The position numbers and the translations under genes were made by a program. A stretch of DNA of 64,000 bases, taken from Perna viridis (lineage: Eukaryota). The stretch spans positions 27,900,001 through 27,964,000 of the forward strand of contig CM074516.1 in assembly GCA_037379345.1 (NCBI GenBank). The letters run 5' to 3'. Shown here piece after piece: positions 834-43,426 of the stretch. Numbering within the stretch: position 1 is the first letter of the stretch; each line of letters begins with the position of its first letter. Below the pieces are notes generated by a model. The model saw nothing but the letters and a program-made list of their open reading frames with translations. It did no database searches and was not told the origin of the DNA.

Positions 834-3800
834 GTATTCATATTTTAGATACTGCACATACATGTATTTATTGTAGAAACAATTCTAGGCCTATCACATA
901 TTTTCATATGTCATCTCGAATTTGACAACTTTGTATTTGTGCATATGTGTTTGTTTTTTTTCTACAGAAACAAGAAATAGTTATTTATAGTGTATAAGAC
1001 TTCATTATGGGCTGAGACTGAATACATTCACTTTTCTATAAGCAAAAAAAGAAATGGCACAATAAAATAAAGGGTTAAAGGTTGGTAATCTTACCAACAT
1101 TTGTTTGAAAAGCCTGTAAAATATAAATTTGAAGATGAAAAAATCTGTGATGATTATTTCATTCAGATTCTTTATTTTACCCAGTAACAATACATTTTAC
1201 ATCAGGTTGTGATGTATCACTGACCATGATGATGGCATATTAGCTGTTGAATATAGGTCATCTCCATTCTTAAACATATAATTGGTGAGAAAAAGACTAA
1301 AATGCCAGTTTTCTCATGCAAGTTTAGAAATTTTAGGCACTCTTTGGTAAGATATAAAAGTTCTTTAACTTGGCTGAGTTATATATCTGAGATTTCCTAT
1401 CTTATTCTCGCACTTATGTCAGATTTTTTATTTCCCAAAACTCTCTTCCAGAATATACAAGCCAACATGGGTAGTACAGAAGTTTACAGACCATTACACA
1501 GTTTCTTCCTCCTCAAGCTAGAAGCTTCTCTGAGAAATGTATTCCTGGTGTCTGATGGCCACATCAACAATGAAGAGACAACTCTAAAATCTGTCCATGA
1601 AAATTGTCATCACACTAGAATATTTACATTTGGTGTCAGGTATAAGATTTCAGGCATTTTTTGCATCAATTTCATCTCAAACTTCTGGGTTCAACCAATT
1701 TTAAAAACAAGAGATTGTTAATATTACTTTAATCATGTTAAGTTTTGCTGTATTCTAGTTTTTTTGTTTTTTGCTGTGGACAGAAAAATGCAAAAAAATA
1801 GTACACACAAAATTAATTTTAACATTATATTATGCTAAGTATATTTTGAAACCAAGACAATTTATATTCGTGAATATGTGCACTTGGTGGTACAGTCGAC
1901 TCCACTTAAACGCATATCGCTTTATTGCATATTTGGGTTATTAGCATAATTTTCTCCTGCACAAATCCATTTCCTATTAGTCTATTAGGGAAAAAATTGC
2001 TGATTTGCATATGCCTTGCAGGTGTATTTCAGTTTATTGCATAGAGAATTTTGCCTCATCCAGGTAAAGGCAGGTTTTCCCAAATTCTATTTTAAGCCTT
2101 CGGGTCATAAATATGTCAATCATATTTATTGTTGTAAAAACTATATTATCATCAATCAGGAGGTGTAAATAATGGATTAAAAACATAATGGACATAAAAG
2201 ACAATTTAAATGATTTCTAATTACATTAAAATAAACAAGCACTTAGGTGAACAATGACTTTTGACGACATGCCAAACATCACCTTATGATGCGACTTGGG
2301 ATATTTTTTGTCCCTATTTAAATTCTTCCAACTACAAATGATTATCAGTGTAAATTTAATTTTCTTTAATGAGCTGAACAGTTTTTAGTGAGCTTGGGTT
2401 ACTAGGCATAAATATCAACCAAAAATTAAAAGTCATCATTCATTCAGTACAATGTCAAATGAAATTCAACTACCCTAAGGTGCCCCATACTATCCACACT
2501 TCATAGGAATATATCGAGGTCAATGACACGTATAATACACAACTATCAATGTACAATGGTGATGAACAGAGGAATAAAAACACACAGACCATTTCAAAAG
2601 CCTACAAACTGCAAACATTGATGAATATTACACTGAATCCAATATATATTATTATTTATTGATAAAATAACAATACAATGAGAAGGTCTATAACAATTAA
2701 ATACCAGATCAGAAATGTTGAACAGTGATATCCCTGGTTGATCCACAGTATCGTCGTCTTACCTGAACTCACACTTCCGGTAAATCATAATTTCGGTTAT
2801 AAGAATAGCCCAGTTATTTGCATAATTTTTACTGGCAAATAGGCTATGCAATTAAGTGGAATCCACTATATAAGAAAAAATAAGCTACCGTGAAAATTAA
2901 TATGTATACAGTATTTGTCTTTGTTTATCTCTCCACTCTTCCTTACTTCTACACTAAAAAGTTTACTGGAACCGTTTTAATTTTTTGTGGATATTTATTA
3001 TCACGATAAGGCTGGCCTTTCTAATTTTGCATCTAACGCTCTGTCGAAAGAGTATTCTGTTATAAAGAAACTTAGTCACTGTCATTTTTTTTCTTTTGAA
3101 AAAAAATTGAAAAACAAATCACTCACAAAGATAAGTTGCTTTACTGTATTTTTAGTCAGTAATAATTTGTGTCTTCTTGTCTTAGTTGAGGGTAAAGATT
3201 TTTCATGATTTTGTTTTCTCATTTCCAGTTCGACACATAATAAGCATGTGTTAAAGGCTGTATCTAGACTTGGAGCAGGATCTTATGAATATTTTGATTC
3301 TCATGCAAAATCTAAATGGGAAGGCAAGGTAATAAACATTTATTTTAGTTAAAGATGTTTTTTGTAACAAAAGTATCATTTGTTTGTGTTTTAAGGTTAC
3401 AGTTTGATTGAATGTTTCAAATCTCATTTGAAAATACATCCTTTTCTTCTAATTCTGAGGTTTGATGGGTAAGATAATAAGCCGATTAAATCAAGAATTA
3501 TGTACATGTATGACTTTCTTTTAATTTATAAGTTCCATGGTTAGTGAAAACAGTATATCACAATATATCAATTCAAGTTTCTGTAAAATTATTAGTTTTA
3601 TGTGGTGTACTAATTTTTGCTATTTTTGTGGTGGACAGAAAAGCTTGAAAAATAGTACCAGCAGAATTGAGTTTAAACACTGTAAAATGCTTATCATTTT
3701 TTTAAAACGCACAAATTGATACCCACTTGACAGAATCAGCAAAAATTAGTAACTGCAAAAATAATATGTTTACAGTATTAAATTTCAACAACATAACAAT

Positions 3801-6800: not shown

Positions 6801-9800
6801 AAAATCATACATACAAAGTAACAAAAGTAAATGAGCAACTCGGACTCCACTAAAAAACTGGGAGCATGGACCAGGTGCACTGGTAGGATAAGCGTCCTCT
6901 GCTTTTCTAGAAACACCTGCCGAGTTGCTCATAAAAAGTCAAGTCCAAGGTGGATGAAAGAGGAAAGGAAAACTATGACATGTTGAACAAATCAGATTTC
7001 ATGGTGCAGATGGATACACTGTAAATATCCACGAGTTCATGATGACGACCATAAAACTTCTGTAGTGGTGACTTCAATCTTGTAGCAACATAACCCTGTT
7101 CCAGAAGCCTATTTGTTAGAATACAAATGCGCGATACAAAAAGTCTGTGTAGTTTTGGCAAGCTCTGGCATAACGTATGAGTTGTGATATGAACACTCTA
7201 TATGCAGGTGCTAAAGGAATGTTGCCACGGATGAAAGGAAAGTTGACAATTCTGAATGAAAAGTCATCAAGCTTGCCGTAAAGTTTGGTCAATAGTTTTC
7301 CTTTACCATTGATTTCTGAGTGTAGGTCAAGATATGGGGGTGACTTCACAGTGTCTGTAGTATCCTTTATCTCAAGTTCTTTGGGATAGATGCGATGTAT
7401 CAAATCCCCAAAATTAGGATCGTTTAAAGATAATATGTCGTCTTTAAAGCGGAAAATGAGATTAAAGGATCTAGATAAAAGATAATATCTACATAACAGA
7501 ATGCTGAATATGTATTAGAAAAAATAACAATAGAAAAACACATAAAAACACATTGTTCATGGTATGCACTTTCAGTCATCTCAAGTATTCAGACAGTTAA
7601 TATTTATATGAATTGGATTTTGTTAATAATGAATTTTTGATGAAGATATTTTTAATTCCTGTTGTCACTGCCTAATGGATTTATTATGATTGGCAGTGAA
7701 AGTAATTTCGGTTATTTATTCTTACAGGTATTACACTGTATGACAGCAAAAGCTATAATCAGAGACTGGGAGGATGGAGTTCTCTCCACTGACAGCATAC
7801 ACCATCAGGTATATATATATTGCTAGAAGTTAGGGGAGAGGCTTGAACTATTGACTCTAAAAGACCTTTTCTTTAGAAAAAATGAAGAACCACTTTTTTG
7901 GGAGCAGGGCATAGTTAAAAGTGCCTGATTTAGGATTGTGACTAGTGTATAGTATTTCCAATTTGGGATTGATTTTCATAGAATTGAGGGACCAATTTTT
8001 GGGATATATTAACTTAATTTTTTCTAAACAATGCAAGTGTGGGCACATGATATTTTAGGCATACTCTCAAAGATTCTTTAATTTTACCTTTTGGCTACAT
8101 TAAGATGGGGGTAAAAGTCATGAAAGGTCTTCATCTTCATTCATTATCAGTCTATTAGTATAATGTATGTGAATGATAGAACCCTAAATGGTAGCAAAGG
8201 ATTATGCCAAGTTGTTCAGATTTGGTCATTTGACCCAGGAGAAATTATGTGATATTCATGTTTATTCAAGTCACTAGATTTACCCAAGCCAGGTCTGGTT
8301 ATGAAATTCAGGTCAAATCTGACACAAATCTACCATACCAGCTTTATTATCATTATAATGTGTCATTGGTGTTTATTTTGTTAGATGAAGAAAATGGACA
8401 TGAAAGATTACATTATTGAACTGAGCAAGAAATACTCCATTGTAACTCAACTGACCAGCTTTATTGCTGTAGAGAAAAGAGAAAAGGTACAAGTGGGCAA
8501 TAATTTCTATTTCAGATTGAAGATTTGTTAGAGTCTATATTTGTCTGTCATTCAATTATACCCATGCAAAGTTTCTGGAATCATCAGCCTTTGAATGATT
8601 TTAACCAGAATCTGCATGTTACACGTAGGTACATGTACATCATTAATTCCATGCCAATCAAAAATTCGATAGTTTTCAAGGTAAGAGGTCAGATTATATC
8701 CATGCGATACTTGTTTTTTTTTTATCTTCATAAAATGATAAACACTGGTTAAATTTCTCACTTTCTGTACTAAATATTTTGTTGATAGATTCTAGTAAAC
8801 AGATATAAATATTTCAGGATGAAGTATTTCCTACTGATGGACCTTCTATAAAACACCTGATTCATGATGAAGATGTTGATTCTCTGCCATACGTATCATG
8901 GCAAGAAGGTACAAAGTCACATATAGCCTCACCAAGTTAATTACTAGGTGCTTGATTCTTCGGCACTCCCATGTAGTTTGTAGAGCTTCATTACTGTTTG
9001 TTATTGCCATTTCAACAACAAATGAAATGAAAAAATACAAAGTATGTTCGTCATATTTTTTCTGTCTATGAATAATGCAAAAAAATGCCCTCAATAGTTT
9101 TTGGGGATGTTACTCAAGGCACATCGAGGGTGTCAAAAGGACACTCTAGAATTCTTCGTGTTTTATGTGTAAAGTTGAATGCCCTATAAAACAAATAATT
9201 ATTATTTCAATACACATAATCGTAGTGTATACTGTTCAAAGGGAAACAATCCAATTATTCAGAACAACACAAATATCAAGTATATATAATATAAACTTTC
9301 TTACATGAATACTTTCTAGATGGATATTTCATGTCCAATTATGAATAATAACTATATGCAAAATTATGAACTAGAATACTAAATTAAATAAATAGGAATC
9401 AAGGTAATATTGGAATTTATTATATAGACAGCAGTGATTTACTGAATTTTCCCCGTGTAAAAACTTGGATGATAAATAGGATAATCAATTGGTTATCATG
9501 AATAAATAAAATATGATCACTCGTGCCAAGAATGCATTAAGATTTAACTTTTCGCACACTCTTTAAATCTAGGTTTTCTTTGGAACTCGTGTGTGCAGAA
9601 CAATTTCCGCACACTTAATAAATCTAGGCATTCCTCGGTACTTGTGATCATATTTTTGTTAGTTATTCTTTCCAAAATTATTTAAGAAACTTTGATGCAT
9701 TGTTCATATCAATTGACGTAAGCTCCCTTCTGATTTGTATAAATGTCAAATTTTATGTTTTCATGTTATGAAGTTTTACTTTTTAAAAAACAGCAGAAAT

Positions 9801-12800
9801 GGCCAAGGAAATTTATTTGTTGAAATAGTGTTGAAAACGAATCATTTGTCATGATAGTGCCAAATTTTTTGTGCATTTTTTATTTACTTTTTTTTGGGGG
9901 GAGGGTATTTGACAGGGCTCATAGGTATTTCTAGCTGAGCATATAACTTCATTAAAAGCATTAGGACTAGTTAAAAGGGCAACGGGTGTATCATGCACTC
10001 AAAGTGCAGCTGTTTATTATAGAGACAACTGATGAAGGAGCACAGTATACTTCATCAGAAGATGAGGATGAAGATCAGATGTCATCTACTGATTACTCTG
10101 ATTATAACTCATCAGAATGGGAATGTGAAGAGGAAGAGGGCCAGAAAGGTTCTAAAAGAGTCAAAACAAAAACTTCAGATTTATCAAGTGATGATGAACA
10201 AAGGGAAGGTAAGATTGCCTTGACAACATAGGATATGTTATTAAATCCCTCCATTCCCTACCTGCTGCCTTTCCCACCATTTAGAGAAGGGTTTCACTTT
10301 AATTATTGCTTGCTCATTTGTTAGCCTCACTTCCACAAACAATGTATTCCCTTTTTTCTTTTTTAACAGTGCTCTATTTGTTTCCCAAGCTTTTCATCGA
10401 TGCTTAAGGAAGCATAGTTATTGATGTAAATGTTTGAAAGGTCCTTGTCAGGCCATTAATATCAGACATTTTGCCAAAATTTGCTTTGACCAACTTGCTT
10501 TGATTAATTTATTAAATTAAAAAATTTACATTTATCAATATTTAAAATTTTTCACAAAACATTTCAGCATAACAGTTATGTAGAATTGTACTATACACTC
10601 AATATTTTAATTTAGACTTTTTTCCATTTTGAAAAAAAATTGAATATAGACTTTTCTTAGAATTTAAGGAAGCATTCAATCTGTTTGCCAAAGATAGTGG
10701 TGGCATCCAATACAAAGATCTACATTCAGCCATGAGGTCAATGGGTCTCAATTCTACAGAATCAGAAATGGCAGATATTATGAAAGAAATGAATGTTTCA
10801 GGTAGTCATTAAACATATTTAAAAAAAAAAGTGTAATACACTGAAGGATTGTTTTCAATTGCTGGTTAGAACGTGGGATATAAACGACTTTGAGTCAGTT
10901 TACACTGAATAAATTGCAAAGCGTTTTATGTTACAGTGTAAATCGACCCAGAGTTATTTATATCTCATAACAAACAATTGAAAACAATTCTTAAATACCA
11001 GAAAACAAAAATAAAATCACAATATATATATGAAATCAACATTTTTTTTAACACACATCAATACTGTCAACTGTCAAGTGATTGCACCATTTGTTACTTA
11101 CATGCAAGCTTTTAGTGTATTGGGATACCCCATTGAAGTAGTTCCATAGTTAGGGGGCATGGCTAAAATACCAAGATAGGTTATACAAAATGGACAATGC
11201 TGCTTAATATCGTTAAACTATTCAGAATTTCACAAAAATAAAAATATATTGTAATAATTAAAATTTTGAAAGGATTTGGTAACTGAAGTGATGATTATCA
11301 GTGCTCATAATAGGGTTTGTAAGTCTTGTCATGTGACTTGTCCTAGTCTACCATTGACATGCATAGAGATTTGTCATTTTCAGAGTGTTGGGTTCAGTAT
11401 ATAAAAGCAAAACATATGTTTGCGTAAAAATACCAATGCAAATGACAAATATCTACTTCAACATGATAAAAGTGTAAAGAAAAGGGTAAAATAGAAGATA
11501 TTGCATTGTAAGACAGCGTTTCGAGAGCCTGGAATTAAACAATAAAATGCAGACCGGTCTTTGGATTTCAATACGTTCTACATCAGAAATTTTTTTAAAA
11601 AATGGAACTAGGACGAGACTTACAGACCCTTTACCCCTCATGAGTTACTACTGTAAGTTAGTGATTACTTGTGTCACCAACATTGATAACATATCTAGTA
11701 GCCATTCAACTCCTTCCCTCCTTATGGCCCGTCAAAATGTTCCCCTTCTTCTGTATAACATGGAATGCAAAGAACAGCATTAACAAATATCTAATAAATC
11801 TTACTGTACTCGGCAGGTAATGATGTTGTCAACTTCAACCAGTTTTTATCATTGGGGAAGAATAGAATGAAAGACACAGATGCTGAGGAAGACATTATTG
11901 AAGCTTTTGCTGTGTTTGATAAGGATGGGACAGGTCACATTAAACAAGAAGAATTACTTCATATCATGTCCAACCTAGGGGAGACAATCACTAAGGAAGA
12001 GACTGCTGAGATGATGCAAGATTTAGGAGGAGAAAGTGGGATGGTTAATTATAGGGCATTTTGTAGGTCAATGATGGAGAAGACAGATGTACCTAGAGAA
12101 GCTATTGGTCATGGTTCACATGGTTCGTCTATCATTACTTCTTTGTTTAAATATATGTTGTCTGGCAGGACTCTTCTAAAACTTATTAGAAGGTTGTATT
12201 TGAGTTATCTAAAATATCTATTGGCCAAGAAAAAGAAACATTACATTTTGAGTGACAGCTAGTGGTCATTTTTCAGGTCTAATCATACATGTACTTTTCA
12301 AACATTTGCTGTTACACTATTGATTCAATGTAAGAACAGGAATGCAATGGTGGACACATTTTTCATATTATAGCAAATGTGTAAATGCAGAAATAAATTT
12401 TATCTGAGAAATGATTTTGTTTTTAAAAACTGTTTATTAATACTGGTTTTGTAGAAATGCCAGTTTTTTCTGTTGGTATGTCCTGATTCCTTTCTCTTTA
12501 GGCAGTTTATTATACTCCTCTCATTATAGTCGGAGCTGGACTATATTGCAATAGCCCTGTCTGTCCATCTGTCTTTTAATTTTTCTGTCACATTTTTCTG
12601 TATGACTATGGTTGTTATGACTGGAACCAATTATTTATATGGGGCCAAAGAGGACCCATTTGATTCTGGTCAAATTCTTGTCCTTTGTCAAAAATATTGC
12701 AATCTTATTCAGAGCAGTATCAAGCTTGAATAGTGTGTCCATATTTGTCTAGCCGAAACTGTTCAGCTTTAACTTCAGTGATCATATCAGGCTGCAACCT

Positions 12801-15800
12801 GCAAAATATTTTATTCCCTTATTTGTGGGAGGTATATAGTGGTCATTGTATTTGTTTTCTCCATTCATCTTTCCGTTCAACTCTTTCATTTTCTTTTTCT
12901 CTGCAACTACTTTTCACGGACACTTTATATATTGACAGAAATCTTTACATAGGTATGACATATGATTGGAATTGATTTCAGACTGAAGCAACATCAACTT
13001 TCAGTTTCTATTTTGATCATATGGTTACTGGAGTAGGGGCATTCTTTATTTTTTATCTGCAAGATTTTTTTCCACATTTTACACCCAAAGCTTCCTAACT
13101 AATGTATAGATTATGTCTCCCCAACTTTGGTTGGGGGACATATTGTTTTTGTCCTGTATGTATATCTGTCTGTCTGTTTTTTTAACTTTTGTTAGCACAA
13201 CTCCTCAGAAACTACTACACAAAAATTTCATGAAATATAATTTTGTAAGTAAATGAAGTAAGGACATGGTATGTTGTTGAACACATTACCAATTATTTAT
13301 GATCCATTAATTATTTACCCTTTTGAACTTTGGAATGGGTGCAGACTTTTTTGTAGGAAAAATCAATCTTTGGTTTGACATTGTAGGAGAATTAATATCA
13401 ATAGAAAGTGAAACAATGTATGAGGCAGCATCTACAGAAAGTGAGAGTGAACCTGAAATGGACTTTGATTTATTTGACAGTAAGTGTAAGAGCATGAATG
13501 TTAATATAATGTAGCAATAGTACAGCACAAATTAAATCTCTGGCATTATTGGTACATGTGATCATGCTTTCTCATTATTATCCTATTTATGACAAATGTT
13601 AACGATCAAGAATTTCTTTGCTTTTTATTTTTTTTCCTACTTGTATAAGACACTATACTGAAATTGTACTTAAAAAAGGAAGGCTTTAGTTGATTTTTTT
13701 CCTTTATATTTTTATCAATTTCAGTGAAAAATGCTGTCAATTTGAAAGAAATTGACCTAAATGGGGAAATAGTAAAAATAAGATTTTTCAGGGAAGGTGA
13801 AAAAATTGGGTCGGAGGGAATGAGAATCTAGGATATTTTTTTTATTTAAGCCCAAACTGATAAATACTAATCAATTTAATTTACATTGTTGACAAGCCAA
13901 AGTTATTAAATGTTGAAATAAAAAATGCTGAAGCATCTACTGAAAGTGAAAGTGAAGTTGAAATGACAGGTTTATTTGACAGTAAGTATAAGGGGCATAA
14001 AAGTTAAAATAATACTGCAATGTTAGGTAAAACAAGTACAGCACAAGTTAAATCTCAGGCACTATTTGCATATTGTGATCTCATTTCTACCCTATTATAT
14101 CATACTAAAGCAGTTGCTATGTTAGGGTTTTGTTTAATCTTTTGCAATAATCCTCAGCAACCGTTCATTTGAGTGATTTATACAATGTTTTTATTCCTTT
14201 ACAGGTTTTCCCTATTGTAATTTTTTTGACTTTGTAGGACAACAACTTGTTTCCTGGGGTATTTTATTATTGTTCACCATAAAAATCTTATTAACCTCTC
14301 ACTGGAATGATTCAAAATTAGATGTGTGTCTCCTTGATTTGTTGTACCCTATTTAAACTATAGGCTCCGTCATTTGGTAAAAATTGATGATGTTGCTTTA
14401 AAGCATTTCCTAATTTTTTGTACAATATAGTGTCCAAAGCATTTGTTGTGTCCATAGTAAATTGTAAGTCCTTATGCTTAAGTGTGTCAAAAACTTGTAT
14501 TGTGTCTGAACTTGCCAAACTGTTCAGGGTATAACTACTGGGGTTTTACCATATTGTGCTAAACGAAACTTTTTATTGTATTTCTCAACCATCAAAACCT
14601 CAATGATTTGTGTTCGGTGCACTGTAGTTTTTGTGCAGTATTACATACAATTTAAACACTCCTGCACCATATGCCGATAATTGAAAGATTGATTTAACTT
14701 ACAGTGGATATGGGGACTTTTGACGAAACAGAATGTGCAAAGGCAACTAAAGAAAGTGAAAGTGAAAGTGATGAGGAAGTTGGTTTTGGTTTATTTGAAG
14801 GTAATTGTTAAATAATTGATTTGAGAGCATGAATGTTAAAATGGTGACTGACAATTTCTGTAGACCCAACACAGCACAAGTTCTATCTCACTTTTGTCAT
14901 TGGCGATCATTGTATGATTATCATTTTATCTTATTACATTTACTATAATACATTTTATAGAAGTTGACATTTTTATGACTGCAAAAAATTACTTTGTATT
15001 ATGTTATGATGTCCTTGTTGTTATCCTACAATAAACACTATTTCTAATTATGAAAAGAATCTGCCAAATACTTTTCATGTTATTGTGCTATGTTTGACTG
15101 CTGCCTATCAGACCACCCCTCTATTGTACAACCCAAAACTAGGAACAGATTTTTTTTTATGGAGATGTATAAGATAATAAATCTTGTTGAATGTTTAAAA
15201 TCAATGAACGGTAGACCCATCAAAACATCTAAATATAGTTATTCCATTATTTATATGCAGAAATTGTGAAATACCAACCACAATAATTTTTTTTCCTCAC
15301 TAAAAAGACAAGAAAATTCCTATCTTTAGCTATGCAAGATTTCCTTATCTCATCCGCGGGTTGATACAGAACCTGCTTTCCTGTAAAAATTGGCACTATC
15401 AAATAATGAGTTAGTGAATGATAAGATCTAAAGGAATGTTGGTAAGCACTCATAATATTAGAAAATCTTAATTATCTTGTTTGCCAGGCAGTGACTAGAA
15501 TATTGAAACAAAAACTCCAATTTGGAAATGAAGTTTGAACAGAGTTAAAAGTATTCACAAGGGTAATCAGTATGAAATTAACCTTTGACCTTAGAAGCAC
15601 TGAGAGCCTAATTTCAGTCGTACAGGAAATTAAGCAGTAATACTGAGTAAGGATTCCTTTATTCTCCCTTCCTAAACAGAATGTTTGCTTATCTTACGGT
15701 TTTTGTTATTAAATTAATCTGAGATAGCAATCAATTAACCACAAATATACATGTAATTAGAAAAAAGTTTTGATTTTGCAAAAAGTTGTAAAACAACTAA

Positions 15801-18800
15801 AGATAGGTAGCATATTTAAAATGTTAGTTTCTGAACCTGATCACTATTGTTGTCCATAAATGTTTGTAGTTAAAATAAATCCCTAAAACTGTCAGGTTTT
15901 CACACAGCTTACTTTCATCCGCACCATCTAGCACACTGATGTTTGTTTATTTTGGCTGTAAAAGTTTTTGCCTATGGTATAATTTTGGTGTGTTAATTTT
16001 GGCACTTTTCAGAGAGAAGCTAGATAAAACAATATAAAAGTACCACCAAAATATCCAAATTTACTGTATTTATTTCATCAATACTCAAACTTATTTGGTA
16101 GTAAAGCAAAACTAAGAAGTGTTAATAAAAAGGTGTTTGTCAAAGTGAGGAAGTCCTTGGACAAAAACATGTTCAGGAACAAATAATCTCACATGGTCAA
16201 ATAATTAAGAAAGACGAAAATTAAAAAACACACAGATAGGAGAAGTAGATCAGTAACATGTATATATTCTTGTAAATGCACTGCAAATGAATAACTCCAG
16301 TAGGAGATAGCTGTCAAGTAGTTTTAATTGTTTGTTTTTGGATTTTTGGAATAACCTAAAGCGTAGCTCAGTGATAGAAAGTGACTTAAGAGTACTTTGA
16401 AATAACAAATAAATATCAAATCTGCTTCATATAAATGTATACATATTTTGATTACTTCCTACAATTTATTCAGGAATTATTGTTTTTTGGAAAAATTTAC
16501 TTTGTGTCAAAAACTTCCACTTTGTAATTAACTGATTACTCTGTGTCAAAAACTTACACTGTGTAATTAACTGATCACTCTGTGTCAAAAACTTACACTG
16601 TGTAATTAACTGATTATTCTGTGTCAAAACTTACACTGCATAATTAACTGATTACTCTGTGTCAAAAACTTTCACTGTGTAATTAACTGAATCAACCACA
16701 TAGAGATATTGGGTCAAGCAGGATATGACTTCAATGAGTGTCTGTTTGATGGTATATGTATAAGGCTGGGTACTTTGGAGCATTTATTTTTTTTGGTGTA
16801 GGATCCATGTCTATTGTATATTTATTAAACTTGAAAGTATATTTATATTTTCAAACAATATCAGTATTTACAAATTCAGCTATTTTGATATCCTTTAACA
16901 GAAAACTAATTGACAGTGATATTTTACTAAATTGTTTTTTTTATGTTAGATTTTTTTTGTAGATGACAGCTATGATACATATGAGCCCCCAGTTGCAAAA
17001 GCTCTAAAGGCTACAGCTAACAGTGACAGTGAGAGCTTGAGTGAAGATGACTTAGCACTGCTTCATGGTAAGACTTTTTGACATTTTTTTATTATATGAT
17101 GGCAAAAATTATTTTTGGTTTTATAATTGAATCCCCTTGTCATTGTCGTTGGCTCCCATTTTTTAATCAGATTCCTCATTGAAGTTCTTGCCTGTGTGTT
17201 TGAATCAGATTACAGAATCTTTTACAGTTTGCAAATTATGTGGGGTCAAAAGGGGTCACACCTTTAAAAAATTGTCTTTATTTTATTTTTTGTGCAATGT
17301 TGAAAATTTTATTTCATTAGTTTCCTCATGGAAACCCTTGCCTGCATTTTTCTATCTGATATCTCTAACATTTTTTGAGTTATAAGGGGCCAAAGGGGAT
17401 CGTGTCCAAAAAGATTGACATTTTTAGGTTTGGTGCAAATTGAAAAACTTTTTTTATTGGATTCCATATGAAAATCCTAGTCTAAATACAAGAGCTTCAA
17501 GAAGTATGCTTACCAAATTTACCCTTTCATTCACTATTTTTGATATGATGAGGTACAAAGTGAACTACAGTGAATAAAGTGAATACACCTTAAGCAGACC
17601 TTTATACTTAAATTGAATTTCAAAATGCTACACAATATATTTTATCCATAATAAACTGTAAGTCCCTATGTTTTGTGTGTCAAAAACTAAGAGTTCAACT
17701 ATCTAGAGTCATATCATGCAGCACTCGGTGAAGTTTTTATTGAACCTTTAACACATTGTTCTTAGGAACATTGCCGAAGGACACACCCCAAAAAATAAAC
17801 TTTAAAAAAAAATTTTGTCTGCTTTCAATTTTTTTATTGGATTTCTTATGAAAATGCTTGAAATGCAATTAAGTCAGATTACAGATAGCTCTTACCATTT
17901 TCAAGTTTTAAAGGGTCAATTGGACCACACCCCAGAAAATGGATTTTTTAAATTTTTGGTCCTATTTTGAGAATGTTGAATTAAATTTTAAATTATGTGT
18001 CCTAACCTGTTATGTCCATGATGAATTGTAAGACACTATGCTTAAGTGTGTCAGAAACAAAAAAACTGAACTTGCCCCAACTGGACAGGGTTCGACCACT
18101 TTGGTCGTATCATGCTGTGCTCCACAAAGATCTTAATATATAATTAATATAACTTTTATGACCAAGCACATAATCTTAAGTTACTTCAATGTGAATCATT
18201 CCTGTTTTTAGACTAGATTGTGCATTGTTGTTGACAGTTGGATCCCCTGTTTTTGTTAATGTTAATATTTTGCATAATTGGCCAACAATTACCCATATAT
18301 AGCCAATTATAGTTGTAACCCCTCTGTTTCCTTCAGTCCTTTTTTAAAACCTATCTTCTATAGTACTTCTTTTTATTCTACTACTGGAACCATTGTCCAC
18401 CTAATGAGCAGTTTCCCCATATCTTTGCCTTTAATAACTTCATTCAAAGAGCTTTGTAAGAAAGAGTTACAGATACTTATAAATATAAGTGTCATATTTA
18501 TTTATACTTTGTTCTATTTAACTTCAAATAACAAAGAATATATTTATCTTGTTTTGATATGACTATTGTAGAGTTTGGAACTGCTCTGAAGCAAGTTCTA
18601 CTATAGCTCTTGGGTTGAATTAACTGTACTCTAGCCCTTGGTCTGAAATACCTATACTTTAGCCCTTGGGTTGAAATAACTATACTCTAGCCCTTGGTCT
18701 GAAATACCTAAACTTTAGCCCTTGGGTTGAAATAGCTATACTATAGCCCTTGGTTTGAAATAACCATATTGTAGCTCTGTGGTTGAAATAGCTATACTAT

Positions 18801-21800
18801 ACTATAGCCCTAATGGGTTGAAATAACTATACTTTAGCTCTTGGTTTAAAATAAATATACTAGAACTCTTTGGTTGAAATAGCTATACTGTAGCCCTAAT
18901 GGGTTCAACTAACTATACTATAGCTCTTGGGTTGAAATAACTGTACTATTGCCCTTGGTTTGAAATAAATATACTATAGCCCTTTGGTTGAAATAAGTCT
19001 ACTGTAGCCCTAATGGGTTGAAATAACTATACTATAGCTCTCTGGTTGAAATAGCTATACTATACTATAGCCCTAATGGGTTGAAATAACTATACTTTAG
19101 CTCTTGGGTTGAAATAAGTATACTATAGTCCTTGGGTTGAAATAACTCTTCTGTAGCCCTAATGGGTTGAAATAACTATACTATAGCTCTTGGGTTGAAA
19201 TAAGTATACTATAGCCCTTGGGTTGAAATAACTATACTCTAGCCCTTGGTCTGAAATACCTATACTTTAGCCCTTGGGTTGAAATAGCTATACTATAGCC
19301 CTTGGTTTGAAATAACCATATTGTAGCTCTGTGGTTGAAATAGCTATACTATACTATAGCCCTAATGGGTTGAAATAACTATACTTTAGCTCTTGGTTTA
19401 AAATAAATATACTATAACTCTTTGGTTGAAATAGCTGTACTGTAGCCCTAATGGGTTGAACTAACTATACTATAGCTCTTGGGTTGAAATAACTGTACTA
19501 TTGCCCTTGGTTTGAAATAAATATACTATAGCCCTTCGGTTGAAATAAGTCTACTGTAGCCCTAATGGGTTGAAATAACTATACTATAGCTCTCTGGTTG
19601 AAATAGCTATACTATACTATAGCCCTAATGGGTTGAAATAACTATAGCTCTTGGGTTGAAATAAGTATACTATAGCCCTTGGGTTGAAATAACTCTTCTG
19701 TAGCCCTAATGGGTTGAAATAACTATACTATAGCTCTTGGGTTGAAATAAGTATACTATAGCCCTTGGGTTGAAATAACTATACTATAGCCCTTGGGTTG
19801 AAATAACTATACTGTAGCTCTTGGGTGGGAAGAACTATACTATAGCCCTTGGGTCGAAGTATCAGTACTATCAGCCTTTGGTTGAAATAGCTCTTCTATA
19901 TACCAGTTTAAATAATGACAAAATAATTTGTAAAAACTATGTAACTCTTTTTTTAATTTCTTAATTTTGTAAGATAGACAGGAAGTATATGTAACACATG
20001 AACCTCATGAATCTTGTTAATCATTTACCCATTCAAAGTAGACTGTTGGTCTTATCAATACTTGGAGCCTCTTGCTTTTATTTTTCATTACAAGGTAGAC
20101 AACTCAAACTAATTAATGTGTGAATGCTATGAGCCTCTTATTTACTCATGACATTCTAGCTGATATCTTGATCAATAGATTTTACCCTTGAGCTATTAAA
20201 GCCTACATAGGACCATTGGTTCTGAGATGTGTTCACTGTTCATTAGTACTTTGACTTCTTGTCAGTTCCCTTGGTCAGTTCACCTTGAACATTTAACCAG
20301 GATACACTTGTCTCTCTTCACCTTGAATATTTAACTGTCATACACCTGTCTCTCTGAAGGTAAATACATGTATTTAAACTTTAACTTTTGTCTATTAGGA
20401 GATTTATTGTTTCCAAAATATTCAAAAAATTGTTTTAGATTTTGGAATAAAGAATAATTTAATCTAGAACGTAGTGTTAAATTGAATGTTGAGGTGTGAT
20501 TCTGAGTTCTGTCTTGCATGTGGTCAGGACATTTTGGTTTTTGAAATCTGCCATTAGGAGCTGTTTTACTGATAATAATGATAATAGTTTGGGACTCACA
20601 ACTGTAAACTCTTATGGCTGATTCTTAGTATAGTTAAACAGAGCAGTGTAAGAATCCATAAAAATAAAATTCAGTTATTCTTGTTTATTAATAACTCCAA
20701 TTCTTTTTTTTTCTGAAATACAAACTATGAAGGTGAAAGTCAGTACTGTAAAACATGCCCAAAAGTGGCAGTGCCTTTAATATTTGTAGTAGTGGAATTA
20801 CTTAGTGAGGTAAATAGATGGCCTTGACCAAATGTACTAGAGGGTTTTTCCTTAAATTTGGTTAGTTAATTAGATAGTACTGGTATCTTAGGTTATGGGT
20901 TTTATACGACAACTACCACTTGATGACTTTTTACAATAGTATAAAATTTGTTAGGTATATAGCCAGCCTTAATCAGCTGAGGAAGGAAGTTAACCCTTTA
21001 GTTAGAGTGCTGACTATTGAATGAGAGGTTCCAGGTATGATTTATACAACTACCACTGGATGACTTTTTACGATAGTTTAAAGTTTGTTAGATATATCAT
21101 GTATATAGCCAGCCCAAATCAGCTGTGCTAGGGAGTTTATCAGCTCAGTCAGATTGTTGATTATTGAAGGTTCAATCAAATAAATACTTTCTACAACAAT
21201 ATCCGACTTTGCCATTTATTATATTGCACTGAGCTGAAAAACAGATTGCCAAAGATGCTATAACACTGAAGGAAGGCTAGTTGGATTTTTGCAGTTGAAA
21301 TGAAATGATAAGGAATAGGGGTCAGACTAAAAATGGGCTAGAAATAAGCATTTTTATCATGTTTAAACAATAAATTGATTGCCTTGATATTGCACTACAA
21401 GGTGCTATACAAGGAAGGGTAGGATTAATTTGGGGGTTGTGATTGGAACCACTTTTATACAGATGCAAAAAATGTGCAGTCTAGTGGGTAAGGCGCTGCT
21501 GTTTTTGTCATCATCCTTAGACACTTCTTTATTATGCATTAATTTGAAAATTGATTTGTTGATCATTATAAGATTTATCAACAAGGTTACAAACTACGCA
21601 AGGAAAGTCAGTATTGGTTTTTTGGGTTTTGGCCCCAACTGTTATAAAGTTAGGGGCAAAAGGAGGGGGGGCTTAAAAGTAGCATTTCATAGAGTTTAAC
21701 TTTAGAACTCCAGTAAAACCATAAGAATGTCTATGATATTGTTCCACATTATTCTATACCTCAATGATCAGACTTGGATTTTCAGAAATAATGGACCAAA

Positions 21801-24800
21801 AAAGGGGGTTAGAAACATATGCATTTTCTTGATGTCCAGACAATAACTTGACTACTAGCAAATAAATCTCTTTGAAATTGTATTACAAGGTGTCATACCA
21901 CCAAAGGAAAACTGGGGTTGATTTCTGGGTTAAGACTTGAACCTTGTAGGAATAAAGGGCCTGAAACTAGCATTTTCCATATATCCATACAGTAACTTGA
22001 GTAAAAGTTAATGGATCTCATGTAAGTTTTGCTGCAAGGTGCCATACCACAATAAGAAGATTGAGATGGACTTCTTGGTTTGTGACCTGAGCTAAGTAAA
22101 ATTAAGGGGCTACAAAGAGGCCAAAAATAAGTATTTTTTTCTGATTTCTGGACAAAAACTTGAGTGAATGGAAATGGATCGCTTTGAAAATGTAGCATAA
22201 GCTGTCATATCTTAACAGGAAGTTGGTGATGGATTTGCAAGTTTTGACAAGAACTATATAGGAATATGGGTCAAAATGTGACCACTTCATTTTTGGTCAA
22301 ATTTTTATTCTTGTCAAATATCGAATCATAAATTCTAAATCTATCTAAATTCACAGCTGTATCAAGTTTTAATGGTGTAACCATATCAGGGTTTTATCGC
22401 TGACTGTATCACGCTGCAGCTTGCATAGATTTTTATAAAATAAGGGGCAAAAAAGGGACATTTTATTCTGGTCAAAAGAATATTTTGCCAGAGCTTTATC
22501 AAGCTTGAATGGTGTGTCCATATTTATCCCATCTGTTCAGGTTTGGAACTCTTGGGTCATATCCAGCTGTATCCTTCAATGAATTTCACTTACAGTGATT
22601 TTCCTACAACCATGACACTTTTTCGGTACCAATCTTCAGAATAGTACAAAGGATTGGACAAAACTATTGGGACATATTAACGACCAGTTGCTGTTGTAAG
22701 AGTTGATGAATAGGTAGCCACTCTCTTGTGAAAATTCACCTGAACAGGTGTAAACCAGCCAATAGCTTATGTCTCTCTTCATAAAGAATGTTCTCATCTT
22801 ATGAATACTTAAGTCAGATTGTGGTGGATTTTGTGCATTTTGAATTTGAAATTATTTTTTAGTTATTGCATATGAAACATATGCATGTTAGATATTTTCT
22901 TTGTATGTGTCTAACATATGTAACACACTTACATATATGTGGAAAGCTTATGGTTTTTAAATTTTAAAAATATTTTATGAAGAATAAAGCTTTAAACTTA
23001 AGGGTTCCCAAGTGGATTTCAAATTTGAAATCTATAAACTTGTTTCAGTAACATTTTCATGAAATGATAACTGATTAAGTTTATGCTACAATATATTTAA
23101 ATCGTCCTGTCTAAAATCTGAATCCATTGAGTACTGGCTCATTATTCAAAATAGATGCATCCTAGTACCAGTACATGTATTTGTTTAACTAATTCTAATG
23201 CATGTAAATTCTTGCACTATGGTTTCATTATCTTGTGTTTAGGTATTACAGTTGTGTGGTTATTATAACTTTGAAGAACCTTTTGTGCTTGAATAGATAT
23301 TCATTGCATAATGACATTATTTATATTTTAACCACTTTATTGTTTAGTCATGTCCTCTTTCTGTCTATATGTCATTCTAAGGTAGTCATTGCTATCTTAT
23401 ATCAACTTGCTGTTCAGCAAAACATATTATGTTTCAATACATGTAAAAATATACTGTAAACCAAGAAATTTTTGCGTGATATAAACTTTCACGGTTTTCA
23501 TTAGCCTGTAAAAATCGCAAAAGTTTATATACGCGAACAAATCGGGGAAATTTGATTGATCAGGTTGGGTGTCTTGTGTACAATTATACCATCGAATTTT
23601 CCAGTTGATCAAATACAGTTATCTTTCTTTGATTTTAATTTTTGTCTGAATACCTGAAAAAACATAAGATAGGTATATAAAATATTTATTTTTAATTCAC
23701 AATAAAATAATGTTTTGTAGCATATTTGAACTTTAAAACATCCAGTTTAAAATCACTAAAACACTGGGGTTTCAAACGTTTGTAGTACGTCAGCACAACT
23801 CTCATTTCAGCATCCCTGATCTGCGCCATCCAGTTTGAATAACGTTGGTTTCTTTCCTGATTTTTTCCCACGCATTTATAATCCATCTGGCATTCACGGG
23901 TTTAATGTTTGAAAGTTTAACGTCAACATCACACTCTTTAACAGATTTTCCGGCTTTCAGTTGTGATGAAATCTGTTTTGCATACCAGTAGGCAAACTGT
24001 GATTTTACTACCTCCTTGAATTGAGCATTGCCCTGTAGGTATAATGGTTGAAAGTTTGAATAAATCTTGTAAAAACTGTTCAAAAGATCAACACCTAATG
24101 TACCTAATTAACTTATACAAACAACTTGACCACTTAATCAATAAAAAGACTATATTGTTATCGAAATCTCTGACATTAGTATTAAACATCACCAGGGATT
24201 AAAAGGTAAAACAGAAATTTAAAATCCACTTAATTGTGAACAAAATATTGTTTATACAGCAATCTTTACTTTTATTTATTTTGATATAAGTTTTCATTAT
24301 TTTCATCAAAGGCTTGGGTTGTCTGATCAGGAAGGAATAGCATGAGTAAAATTTATATTTTTTTTCAAAAATTAAAATTTATTTGAAATATAAATTAGAC
24401 TAACCTTCTTGGTGCATAGTCCAGTTTCCACAAGGAATAATGCTGATGTTGGTTTGATCAAAATTGTTTATCATTTCATGTAGAATTTGACGTTCAGTGA
24501 CAACCGTGTGGGTGCTTGAGAGAAAATCAAGTTTCTGCTCTTCAAAGTCAAGGTGTAGTTTACGGGCTGCCTATGTGCCTTTCTGTCTGAAAAATCCAAT
24601 TCGTCTTAGGAACGATTCTGTTCAAGAATGTTAAAGACTAATGTGTCCTCTATTTTCACGTAACAGGTGTTTTGTTTTCTGTTGAATTATTCCGGTAGCA
24701 CATGCTATCACAATTTGTTCGCTGACAATAGCTCCCAAATTGTGAAGTTTATGAACATAGTCAACTACATCCTCGTCATACTTTCTAAGCAATAGCGGTC

Positions 24801-27800
24801 TTCCCGGTTCCGCTTTGGGAAGTTCTGACACTGTACTGTTGGGTGAATGTTCTAATTGTCTTAAATATTGTTTCTTCATAGAACAGATAGTAGTTTCACT
24901 GATTGGTTTGCCTAGTTCCTTAGAAAAATGTCTAACAGCACTAGGATTTCCATTCTCGCAAGCATATCAGGCTATTTTAGCTCTCTGACTACTGTCATAT
25001 GGAGAATATTCTCCTCTTTTCCTTTTATCACTGGAACGTATGGCAGATAAAACTGAAGAATTTGCAGCCTGTGTTGTTTTTGCACTTTCTGGTGCTTTTT
25101 CCAAATTTGTATCAGGCAACAAACTTCTTAAATTACTAGTACTGGTATTTCCATTCTGATTTTTTGTTTTTATCAACCACCTTGACAAAGACATCTTGCA
25201 ATTTGAAAAAATATAACACCCGAAATTGAGTTTGTGTTCACAAAATCATTCACCCATAAATATTGATGGGCAGTTGACAAGGCAGAGTCAATAATGTTAA
25301 CTATACAATAAATGGCGGATTCTCGTAATATAGGAAGTATATCCGTAGGAAGACATGACAAAATAAAGAAGGATAACTCATTTTTATTTGTATTTTATTT
25401 GACAAGATAGTCATAGATCCGCGAATATTAATTTTCAGTGATGTCATTATCGTGAAAATTAGTATCCATGAATCAATCCATTGACTAAAATTCACGCAAG
25501 TTTACTAACACAAATATTAGTTGGTTTACAGTAGTGCATTTTGATTTTTTTTTTTTTTTATGATTTGATATTAATCAAATCTTGGACTTGGTAAATGACA
25601 CTCCAATATAATTGTTTATATACCAAAATTTTTAATTAGCCAATTTCATACTCTTTTGTTTAACAGTTATTAAATGCATTTGTTTTATTCACAGAATTTG
25701 AGAAAGCTGAACTCAAAACAATGGAGCCAGTCCCTCAAATGGCATGTGTAAGCTCAGAGAATGTACCAACACTCCAAAGCAGTGTTCCTCAATCAGACTT
25801 GGAAATTAAAACCAAATATAGTCCCATTAGTAGAAAATGTACCTCTCAACCATTACCTCCACCACCAAAGACAGGTTTTCAACCTTTATCAAAAAAGACT
25901 CATGGTAATACTGGTCCTACTCAACCCTTGTCATCAAGAAAATGTCATGGTGGTCTTGTAGAGCTAGAACAGGTTACCCGTGGTGGACCAACATTTATTT
26001 CAGCTGCCCCACCTGCAAGTCCATTGTCATCACAGATTGCTCCAGAGCTCAAACCCTTTGCTGCTTCTCCTCCCATGTCACCACAGTTGGCTCGAACAAG
26101 CTCCTTTCTGGCTTTACCATCTCCAGCAATTATGGTATCAAAAGCCAGTCCTGAAAGAAATAGAGCTGTCAGGCTGTCTGTTGCAGAAAAGAACAAAAAG
26201 TCGGCTTGTATGGGAACACCAGATCTTGGATACCTATCTGGCATAGAACAGTCACCATATTTACAATTTGATCATTCTCCATCTGATTTACCTGCTTCAA
26301 CAAAACCTTCTACATTTGGAAAAAAGTTAAGTAAAAGTGCTGCTGAACCTCATATAGGGGTTGCAAAAGTTAGTAAGCCAGAGCCAAACATACCTACACA
26401 GCAGTCATTCGGTATGTCATTAACGCCATCATCATCACTCTCTGTGCCACAACAGCAGATGTCAAGGATTACACCAACCCACCCTCTGCCATTACAGACA
26501 GAAGACACTCCTCCTGGGGCACCACGCCCAAGACAAAGATCTAGGAGATTATCAGAGGAGTATGTTTATCTAATTAGGCCCCTCAACAAAAAGTTAAATA
26601 TGTGTTATTTTGCTTTGTTAATTTAATAAGAATGTCTAGAATGTTACGATTTTGATGAAAGGATTTTGATACCTGTTTACAGATATTATTTGCTGCGATA
26701 TAGTGGGAAACTCTTTTCATCTGACTATTTCTAAATCTTGTACAAAATATTTTGAGATTTTTCTGGCATTGTACAGGTATATGTATTTGCATGGCAAGAA
26801 AGGAAGAAAAAAAAATGTCGTTTTTTTTTTTTTTTAATTTTTTTTTTATTTTAAAGAAATATTTGACATTATGGTTTTCAGTATTTTTAATATATTCAAT
26901 TCTGTTACATATTTGACATTGCCGAACAAAGCTCACAAAATTTTCAATTTTCTGGTATCTCATTTTCTATGTCTACATTGGAATACTTTTAGGCAGTCGT
27001 TCTTTGCTGAGAAACTCAGATCCAGTGAAGCCCGAAGGTTATCCATTGATTTATCAGAGCAGTTATTAACTGAGAGGAGGAAGCAGTCGTCTAATTCAGA
27101 GGTATTGGCAGGTTATATTTGTTGTACTTACGTAGTACTCCGGCTATGAATCATGCAAAATGTGATTCATGGGTGAAAAACCTACATATTTTTATTTTTG
27201 ATATTTTGTTTGAAATGCCATAGTTAACATAAATTTACATTCAGTTCTTCATATAACCGGTGTTCTTAGGAAATAAAAATTATATAGAATGCACTGTAGA
27301 TTTCAAAATTGAGGGAGGTAACTCTGTAAATGACACTCAAATACAATAGTATCTATTGAAATTTCAATGTTGATTATCTCCTAAGAGCAAGCAGAATGAA
27401 TGAATAAGTACACACTTCATAGTATAGGCCATAAAACAACTTAATAACAAAAATAAAAATATGTAGCCTTTTTTTGGAGTGTATCACATTTTTTCAGATT
27501 TTGCATGATTCTTACAAAGACTGCTACTTAAAAGTTTCATTGTGACTTTTAACGCAAGTTAATCAAATGAAACATCATAAACTAGCCGTAAAGAAATTGT
27601 AATGATGTTGAAATGAAATAAACTTCTTCCTCTAGGATTACATTCAAATATTTGACCATTTGACAATTTTGATTCATAGACAATGCAACATAATCACACA
27701 ACCAATTGCAATGGTTAATTTTTGACTTCCTTTGTTTATATCACATTTGTGATGTGATATTCTCTTAGTGAATTAGTACTAGTTTAAAATCAGGTGAGAA

Positions 27801-41542: not shown

Positions 41543-42601
41543 TACTTACTTACTTACTGCCCTTTACGCCACTGGCATGTAGGGCAGCAACGAAGTTCCT
41601 CCACTCTTGTATATCATTGGCAAGTTTCTGTAATGTGCCCCAAGTCTTCTTATGCTCTTTGACTTCTGCTTCAATGGTGATCTTTGGGCGTCCTCTCCTG
41701 CGTTTTCCCTCAGGTGTCCAGAATAGGGCTGTTTTTTGTGTTGTCTTTTGGGTCTTTTCGCAGGACATGTCCTAACCACTTCCATCTTCGTTTCATAATG
41801 ATGGTGGCCATGTCTTCTTGTTGGCATCTATTAAGGAGGTCCTGATTACTGATCTTAAGAGGCCAACATATTTTTAGGATCCTCCTCAGACTCCTGGTGT
41901 GAAAGGTTGAGAGTTTGTGTTGGTCTAACTCTGTTATCCTCCAGCACTCTGACCCATAAAGCAGGATAGGAAAGACGCAACTGTTATACAATTTTAGTTT
42001 GGTGCGGATAGTGTATTGTCCTGATCTCCAGACAGGTTACAAGCTATTAAATGCTCCTCTTGCTTTTGAGAGTCTAAGGTGGATGTCGCTCTCCGCACCT
42101 CCATCAGTTGTAACTATACTACCGAGGTATGTGAATTTGTTGGTAAAAGGTAGACATTGTTCATGCAGTTTGATAGGTGTTGGTGTGTTTACATTCAACA
42201 TCATAACCTCGGTTTTCTTTTTGTTGATGTTTAGCCCAATTTGTCCTGCAAAATTCTGAAGTTTCTTGGTCTTTTCTTGTATGTGTTGGTGGGTGTGAGA
42301 AATCAAAGCTATGTCATCGGCAAAGTCTAGATCTTCCAAGATGGAGAAGGCATTCCATCTGATGCCTCTTGGTGTATCTTTCGTTGTTTGTCGCATCACC
42401 CAATCAATGGCTATGATGAAAAGTATAGATGACATAACACAGCCTTGACGGACTCCAGTTTTTACATTGAAATACGTGTCGCTGTTGTTTCCGACTCTGC
42501 ATCTGAAGTTCGTGTAGAAACTTTTGATGACGTCCATAAGTTGTTGTGGTATTCTGTATGATCTAATTATTTTCCATAAACTTTCTCTATGTATGCTATC
42601 A
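41543..42601 (-). mobile_element. 5'-truncated RTE-clade LINE (RT C-terminal part), frameshifted
   Basis: ORF 42037..42615 (FDSIHRESLW, GVRQGCVMS, DLDFADDIAL, FTYLGS), continued in 41710..41991 and 41550..41768; (TAAG)n tail; AAGGTAG direct repeats at 41536-41542 and 42602-42608. Confidence 0.92.
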
Positions 42602-43426
42602 AAGGTAGGATACAAGTATAATATATAAAAGTTTTTTGGTTTTTTTTTCAGTTTGATGTTTGTCTCTAATTTAAGTCATATGGGATTATAACTATTTCTA
42701 TCATTCACTGAAAAAAATCATGTATCATATTTCTTTAAAATAAAACTAAAAAAGATAAAACGAAAATTATCTAAGCCCACGAAAATATAACTGCCCCCCT
42801 AAGAAACCATATTGTCACGATATAAACAAACTCGTCGAACGGGAATTTAGCTTCAATCCTCATTCGAAACCCAAAAATTTATGCCTCTATATCTAGCCTT
42901 TATAAAAATATCAGGTATCCGTAATAATTTTAGAAAAATACACTTACAACGAAAAGTTCTGAAAGGACGAACGGATACTGTTAATACCATACATATCCCG
43001 CAAAGTGGGACATAAATAGATAGTTTCCATTTTCACAGAACATATTTCTATCGAGCAGCATATCATTAGATATTAAATAGGCCTTCAAATAGTCTTTGTA
43101 TTGTAATGTTATATGTTCCCGACAACAAAGTCTGATTTTGACATTATTTTCTATGTTTTATTTTTTTAAATTTTTTATTGTTGCCTTTTTTGATATGAAA
43201 CAAATGAAAGGAAGTACCTAAAATTAAACTCATGTAGAATTGTATAAAAATGTGCAAAACAATTCTCGCGCATAAAGTACATATATCTGTACCTGCAAAT
43301 TCGTCTTCACACTTACGCTTTTATACAAGCAGATCTGAATAAACCATGAATATTCAAGTACAAAATATAATTCCCAGGAAGTGAGTATTTCCATTCACCA
43401 TCTAAAGTGTATTTTATATGAGCAAC

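Follow-up and report, generated by a model that had tools for sequence, protein, structure and literature searches.

Organization of the PARP4 locus

The window, i.e., the whole stretch of 64,000 nucleotides from Perna viridis contig CM074516.1 analysed here, contains part of a + strand gene that is assigned, by its predicted domain order (BRCT-PARP-VIT-vWA-linker-C-terminal domain), to PARP4/vault PARP (Table 1). The gene starts approximately 18 kb before window position 1, and its BRCT, PARP, VIT, and vWA MIDAS exons lie upstream of the window. Residues 4-121 of Mytilus PARP4 (BRCT) match exons 18.0-17.3 kb upstream of the window in tblastn. The H, Y, and E motifs of the PARP domain, located at what we take to be the H-Y-E triad positions, are all present in the upstream exons. 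The VIT domain was matched by PF08487 (E=3e-23) at C6:27895770, and the vWA exons are 72-86% identical to those of Mytilus, with an intact MIDAS D-x-S-x-S motif. About a dozen VIT-domain loci were observed in the genome, and MVP genes are present at three loci (C9:21.62-21.67 Mb and C6:0.17 Mb).

RNA joints reach position 17067, and the exons downstream of it were assigned by homology. The large Pro/Ser-rich exon, which was found in 20 of the 24 sequencing runs listed, none of those recorded as RNA, is likely the positional equivalent of human exon 30. The last exon is 62-66% identical to the C-termini of Mytilus PARP4 proteins that have PF26156, and its link to the linker is by homology only. 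PF26156 is presumably the MVP-binding family, and the C-terminal exons probably encode an MVP-binding domain.

Other features were observed in the window. A cluster of B-box plus NHL-like (TRIM-like) open frames lies on the + strand (44674-46254, 49382-50926, ~55639, and 62476-63916); two are long and intronless, and the others are broken. Intronic or intergenic minisatellites are located at 18599-19900 (period 28), 16497-16690 (39), 56006-56520 (22), and 1-214 (32). Fragments on the - strand (41553-42675, 7119-7514, and 24400-25245) resemble LINE reverse transcriptases and a DNA transposase.

Table 1 Features of the PARP4 gene in the window (window coordinates).
Feature	Position	Strand	Description and evidence
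vWA-domain exon	1449-1637	+	tblastn with Mytilus PARP4, 86%; borders approximate, homology only
Last three conserved core exons	7728-7808, 8385-8486, 8818-8908	+	RNA joints, open frame; variable linker starts after these
Acidic, serine-rich linker exon	10023-10208	+	186 nt, phase 1-1; RNA joints
Calmodulin-derived exon (N-lobe)	10661-10801	+	Phase 1-1; RNA joints, Pfam EF-hand
Calmodulin-like exon, rest of EF-hand module	11817-12122	+	306 nt, phase 1-1; RNA joints; EF-hand_7 E=1.5e-8
Stalk-tail-like exon, copy 1	13387-13479	+	93 nt, phase 1-1, spliced; degenerate, ends ...EMDFDLFD
Copy 2, dead duplicate (pseudo-exon)	13892-13981	+	Acceptor replaced by TG, three codons missing, skipped in RNA
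Stalk-tail-like exon, copy 3	14705-14800	+	96 nt, phase 1-1, spliced; near-consensus end, followed by DDS after splicing
Homologous intron starts after each copy	13480-13620, 13982-14122, 14801-14950	+	Exon-plus-intron tandem duplication
Linker exon after tails	16963-17067	+	105 nt, phase 1-1, in frame; RNA joint, contig pieces
Large Pro/Ser-rich linker exon	25696-26560	+	320-aa open frame; tblastn 35% with Mytilus PARP4; borders approximate, homology only
C-terminal domain exons	~34647-34751, 36132-36233, 37400-37723 (stop)	+	tblastn with PARP4 C-terminus; homology only

Splicing of the stalk-tail-like exons

Splicing was analysed over positions 7600-17200 with two stranded raw RNA runs (approximately 19% and 24% of each read) and two contig runs, and a joint was listed when it had three reads or one contig. 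All four runs gave the same + strand chain with GT..AG ends: 7808>8385, 8486>8818, 8908>10023, 10208>10661, 10801>11817, 12122>13387, 13479>14705, and 14800>16963. The reading frame is open through the whole RNA-joined chain, and each of the six linker exons with RNA support is a symmetrical phase 1-1 cassette. Joint 12122>13387 has 7 and 9 raw reads, 13479>14705, which connects copy 1 to copy 3, has 8 and 12 (20 in total), and 14800>16963 has 3 and 7; each of them is also covered by a contig in both contig runs.

An earlier note on this DNA had described three tandem exons encoding mimics of the C-terminal tail of ribosomal P0/P1/P2 proteins, and had set beforehand that the absence of splice support for 13387-13479 and 14705-14800 would refute it. 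Joints were found for both exons. The number of exons had to be corrected, because RNA joins 13387-13479 directly to 14705-14800 and skips copy 2. None of the four runs, at low depth and with the raw runs partly sampled, listed a joint that enters or leaves copy 2, and rare inclusion of copy 2 in RNA may occur. In copy 2, TG at 13890-13891 takes the place of the acceptor AG found in copy 1, and three motif codons are missing. Alternative AGs within 300 nt of copy 2 lead to stops, frameshifts, or purine-rich exons of at most 48 nt, and no good acceptor was found among them. A three-exon multivalent array was rejected on the basis of the RNA joints, the TG acceptor, and the poor alternatives. 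The mRNA encodes two tails 32 residues apart with more linker downstream; the RNA-joined exon 16963-17067 adds 35 further in-frame codons, and the tail has indeed been made internal. The proposed multivalent internal array thus stands in being internal and spliced, with two tails rather than three.

Tail scores and tandem duplication

Tail similarity was scored against the two complete P-protein tails of the same genome, which have a self score of 70. Copy 3 scored 57, copy 1 scored 41, and copy 2 scored 17, while the rest of the 54,820 stop-free six-frame 13-mers in the window scored 23 or less. The acidic-MGFGLFD tail of P0/P1/P2 (PF00428) is therefore present in copy 3 and copy 1 by score. 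The three translations quoted in the earlier note and the phase-1 GT donor at the end of each copy were confirmed in the sequence. A Pfam search with Ribosomal_60s, which had been proposed as a check, gave no match for single exons at E<=1, and the locus is absent from the nine PF00428 matches in the genome. The CK2-type serines that had been compared with those of real P proteins are present, and such serines are expected in any acidic linker.

The sharing of intron sequence among the copies, also proposed earlier, was borne out: pairwise local alignments of the downstream introns (~130 nt) scored 90, 70, and 83, compared with random maxima of 44, 54, and 49 obtained with about 480 random window stretches each. 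The upstream introns of the three copies are unrelated (alignment scores 23-25). The homologous downstream introns indicate local tandem duplication of exon plus intron, which by itself is ordinary. A dispersed repeat was rejected as the origin of the shared intron, because a genome search with copy 1 plus its intron recovered only copy 2, within the reach of that search. No other tail-like exon was found in the genome with copy 3 as the query, and a tail motif scan over 264 kb around the locus detected no further one.

Calmodulin exons and the tandem paralogue

Two linker exons encode degenerate calmodulin. The acceptor and donor positions of exon 10661-10801 are the same as in all seven calmodulin loci examined (of 33 matches), and the exon is one codon shorter. 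These borders, shared with the donor genes, point to genomic exon capture. As a separate observation, a large cluster of calmodulin or calmodulin-like genes is located at C2:41.0-56.4 Mb, and 30 of 34 matches to the captured exon are on C2.

A tandem PARP4 paralogue is located at C6:27714199-27775555, 106 kb upstream of the PARP4 gene of the window. At the same position in its linker, it has an actin N-terminal piece (27746967-27747191) and a polyproline/WH2-like exon (~27754104) in place of calmodulin and tails; no tail was found in the paralogue linker. In the P1-like gene of this genome, the tail is encoded by a last exon of its own, in phase 1, which is compatible with an ancient capture. 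A recent copy from the genome's own P genes is unsupported, since serine codons are AGT in the tail exons versus TCT in the two P genes examined.

Tails and other protein fragments in animal PARP4 relatives

A search with the VIT-vWA region returned 924 proteins, the best 120 of which were used; this set is mollusc-biased. Tails were scored in 90 of 123 proteins, those with a core anchor followed by 300 residues or more. Left out were four fragments or duplicates, shorter models, and models without an anchor; in one row (P0090) the anchor was misplaced. In this set from the best 120 of 924, a tail score of at least 40 was reached by 29 of 90 linkers versus 0 of 90 cores and 1 of 450 local composition-preserving shuffles, the latter scoring 56. 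The carriers among the 90 are sponges, molluscs, an annelid, echinoderms, and amphioxus; the other 61 linkers have no clear tail, and none was detected in the three vertebrate PARP4 proteins scored. PF00428 is matched by PARP4 homologues.

Five Mytilus orthologue models have two tails each (F-x-L-F-[DE] or L-x-L-F-D), and tandem tails are present in Mytilus, Aplysia, Elysia, and Ephydatia. Loss of the F-x-L-F residues in orthologues, which would have spoken against the earlier note, was looked for; the motif is kept in the five Mytilus models, and copies 1 and 3 pass. The penultimate F is kept in 28 of the 29 high-scoring linkers, which come from five phyla and were selected by score, and the flanks are unrelated. 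D or E occurs in the next two positions after 24 of 29 internal tails, in related rows and in an acidic region (linkers are 13.8% acidic). On a tree of 88 cores (27 carriers), the tail requires 18 changes, compared with a mean of 23.3 and a minimum of 18 in shuffles. Some tail absences on the tree may be small exons missed in the models. As regards motif identity, the mimicry described earlier is real, spliced, internal, and conserved; the PARP4 host gene and the linker context had been missed.

The tail has company. A Pfam scan of 21 homologues, picked for domain variety, placed all extra matches after the vWA region. The linker pieces include actin, ubiquitin, 14-3-3, HSP70, synaptobrevin, Snf7, EF-hand, PDZ, WH2, Pol II repeat, and FG-repeat, and the Mytilus orthologues add Snf7 or HSP70. 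Partial domains are found among them: actin 2-74 of 410, 14-3-3 125-223 of 223, HSP70 380-526 of 599, and synaptobrevin 3-62 of 89. In a short-motif census of 89 linkers, at least one housekeeping-protein piece was found in 67 linkers and two or more in 40, while cores were matched by the HSP70 motif only (2/89). Mollusc linkers have histone H3-like (two) and H4-like (one) tails (P0042 residues 1483 and 1560, P0031, and P0108). A helix without a Pfam match was also observed in a Mytilus linker (P0004, approximately residues 1120-1180); we take it to resemble a SNAP-25-type SNARE motif. As judged from these matches, the stalk tail belongs to a set of about ten housekeeping-protein fragments that replace one another in the linker, in animals and amoebae.

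Internal tails beyond animals and outside the family

A profile built from 15 internal tails was compared with 1.84 billion representative sequences, giving 124 matches. The sequence ends at the motif in 91 of these and runs on in 33, several of which are P genes read past their end. The top match is PARP4 of Dictyostelium purpureum, with four tails plus 14-3-3 and Pol II-tail pieces. Seven matches have at least 300 residues: four fit the PARP4 core profile (D. purpureum PARP4, one VIT-vWA protein with three tails, and two VIT-vWA-like pieces), and three lack a PARP4-like core. Internal tails outside the VIT-vWA family were found in DUF4139 proteins, a RING protein, and a TPR protein (P0136, P0137, P0138, P0233, P0132, P0243, and P0142). 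The three core-less long matches and the DUF4139 cases indicate that internal tails are enriched in, and not confined to, the PARP4 family. A search of the ESM Atlas returned ITIH, VWA5A, and bacterial VIT-vWA clusters only, and nothing on tails.

Discussion

This study has established which gene carries the tails, how the tail exons are spliced, that they lie in the linker, that the linker has a modular structure of phase-1 cassettes, and that its housekeeping-protein fragments are replaced from one paralogue or species to another. The two tail exons and the calmodulin fragment may constitute an integrated bait array for pathogen effectors, an interpretation of the sequences to which we give an even chance. 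A pathogen toxin, protease, or viral protein seeking its real host target would bind or cut the copy in the linker, and the targets copied would include the stalk, calmodulin, actin, ubiquitin, 14-3-3, SNARE, and the Pol II tail. Once caught, the effector could be retained by the vWA/MIDAS module, ADP-ribosylated by the PARP domain, or both, possibly within a vault. Tandem tails would raise avidity, and the acidic residues after the motif might replace the missing carboxyl end.

With about ten swappable housekeeping fragments in the linker, a bait array fits better than a dedicated translation-factor recruiter. The linker pieces derive from hub proteins that are unrelated to one another; many are partial, and they are exchanged rapidly, yet the tail is kept from amoebae to amphioxus, which supports the bait reading. 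It is also supported by the positive selection on the linker in primates and bats, by kinship with the bait-and-trap protein ITIH4, and by the role of the tail as a docking site of ribosome-inactivating proteins. Among the other copied proteins, pathogen effectors use as cofactors, or attack, calmodulin, 14-3-3, ubiquitin, actin, SNAREs, FG repeats, and the Pol II tail. The PARP4 linker is described as being under recurrent positive selection in primates and bats, from which the authors inferred pathogen recognition, and the positively selected human exon 30 includes codons 1504-1521 (PMC4038475). The C-terminal MVP-binding domain of PARP4 is given as 162 residues (PMC7916137), which would place the selected exon at the same linker position as the mussel linker, just before that domain. 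Ribosome-inactivating proteins dock on the stalk tail via its acidic run and F-G-L-F-D end, according to the reports concerned (PMC3280276, PMC5322317, PMC9823235). All of these assays were done with free C-terminal peptides. In an alanine scan described in one of the reports, a glycine change abolished binding and the last position also mattered (PMC3280276). The F-G-L-F core is kept in copy 3, which has E at the last position, and copy 1 has D at the glycine that was essential in the scan.

Several points weigh against the bait reading. Among them are the departures of copy 1 and copy 3 at residues that mattered in the alanine scan, and the free peptide ends used in the assays. Fragments of conserved hub proteins are the ones most readily recognised, and pathogens often target these same proteins, which is a source of ascertainment bias; strongly expressed genes would also be likely to supply exons for neutral capture. 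The literature gathered for other questions contained no stalk-binding toxin of a mussel pathogen. Internal tails occur also outside the PARP4 family, and the three vertebrate PARP4 proteins scored have no tail. The vault step is doubtful, because the MVP residues that contact PARP4 are reported as conserved only in vertebrates (PMC12280208).

The same modules could instead serve host pathways: the tails would bind eEF1A, eEF2, or GCN2 and deliver them, or cargo associated with ribosomes, to the PARP domain or the vault, and the other fragments would be host-pathway handles. This is in keeping with a near-consensus tail in an acidic serine context and with the description of Dictyostelium vaults, approximately one in ten of which encloses an 80S ribosome, and of ribosomal proteins and PARPs as vault-proximal (PMC13100048). 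Perina et al. interpreted the 14-3-3, actin, and ubiquitin domains appended to PARP4 as links to pathways (PMC4245714). Nevertheless, even tandem paralogues swap their modules freely, a pattern uncommon for a fixed host pathway. A 14-3-3 cut in half, or 50 residues of actin, would probably not retain host function, and the 61 of 90 linkers without a clear tail do not favor a recruiter. We consider host-partner recruitment unlikely.

Neutral exon capture, in which a tolerant, disordered phase-1 linker absorbs exons of abundant genes that then duplicate and decay without function, is less probable still. The uniform 1-1 phase of the six linker exons, the donor borders retained by the calmodulin exon, the separate phase-1 tail exon of the P1-like gene, the dead copy 2, and the patchy distribution of the tail are all as such a process would leave them. 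Against it stand the penultimate F kept between unrelated flanks in nearly all high-scoring linkers and in an amoeba as well, the serine codons that argue against a recent copy, and the tandem tails in a sponge, gastropods, mussels, and Dictyostelium. The remaining alternative, that acidic low-complexity exons end in a hydrophobic patch by accident, might be read from the failure of single exons at the Ribosomal_60s cut-off, the degenerate copy 1, and the one shuffle with a score of 56. It is largely refuted by the comparison of linkers with cores and shuffles, together with the low window background and the PF00428 matches of homologues, and we regard chance resemblance as very improbable.

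The bait reading may be extended to the family, with less confidence than for the mussel gene. PARP4 and its VIT-vWA relatives might form a cytosolic bait-and-trap system of ancient origin, shared by animals, amoebae, and fungi, in which one enzyme catches, tags, and perhaps cages unrelated effectors; we offer this tentatively, rating it somewhat below an even chance. The linker would then string together the stalk tail, calmodulin, actin, a ubiquitin end, 14-3-3, SNAREs, and Pol II and histone tails, a part of the proposal that is equally tentative. What vaults and PARP4 do has puzzled researchers for decades, and a bait array, if true, would supply a testable job. It would explain the positive selection on the mammalian linker and the appended domains noted in 2014, make the linker of each species a readable list of the host sites that its pathogens attack, and provide an animal counterpart of plant integrated decoys. 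If the tails recruit translation factors instead, PARP4 would be linked to the ribosome-containing vaults seen in situ.

Comparison with known systems

The mussel gene shares the BRCT-PARP-VIT-vWA order followed by a long linker, and by homology probably also the C-terminal domain, that are described for PARP4/vault PARP (Clade 5) (PMC2964712, PMC4245714). The earlier of these PARP surveys, as far as its text was available, gives the core architecture only (PMC2964712). Perina et al. (2014) described appended 14-3-3, actin, actin-binding, and ubiquitin-related domains in PARP4 of amoebae, lancelet, sea urchin, and Capsaspora; their main text, as distinct from Fig. 1B, which may show more, does not mention stalk tail, calmodulin, SNARE, HSP70, Snf7, or Pol II-tail pieces, the fragment nature, or a bait role (PMC4245714). 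A preprint from 2026 connects a different vault protein with immunity, and the words decoy, mimic, and ribosome are absent from its available text (10.64898/2026.05.01.722283). No paper on an internal stalk tail in PARP4 or on a decoy role was found in a search that covered mainly open-access literature. As far as this literature extends, PARP4 and its appended 14-3-3, actin, and ubiquitin domains are known, and the internal stalk tail and the bait reading appear to be new.

The mussel tails are alike with the last 11-13 residues of the P0/P1/P2 stalk proteins (PF00428). Unlike these proteins, the mussel units have no dimerisation domain, the tail is not C-terminal, and there are two copies per chain. 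The feature belongs to PARP4, not to P proteins.

Exon 30 of primate and bat PARP4, which by inference occupies the same linker position, is highly variable and was proposed by Daugherty et al. (2014) to recognise pathogen factors (PMC4038475). According to that description it varies by point substitution in one large exon, whereas mussel-type linkers gain and lose host-protein fragments (PMC4038475). ITIH4, a protease inhibitor, combines a variable bait region with a MIDAS-dependent trap (PMC7793589). It shares with mussel PARP4 the VIT-vWA core with MIDAS and a long species-variable region; in contrast, it is secreted into plasma and lacks a PARP domain, and the text available does not portray its bait as copied host domains (PMC7793589). 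The mussel gene has the ITIH4-type layout of VIT-vWA with an intact MIDAS followed by a variable region.

In plant NLR integrated decoys (NLR-ID), an immune-type protein is fused to lineage-variable copies of host targets. Mussel PARP4 likewise has fused, lineage-variable copies of host proteins. Unlike NLR-ID, it has no NB-ARC/LRR or paired executor, and its fragments are arranged in series beside an enzyme; Pfam scans of 24 animal homologue sequences detected no NB-ARC, NACHT, or LRR. If the bait reading holds, mussel PARP4 would, by analogy and at most, work like an integrated decoy.
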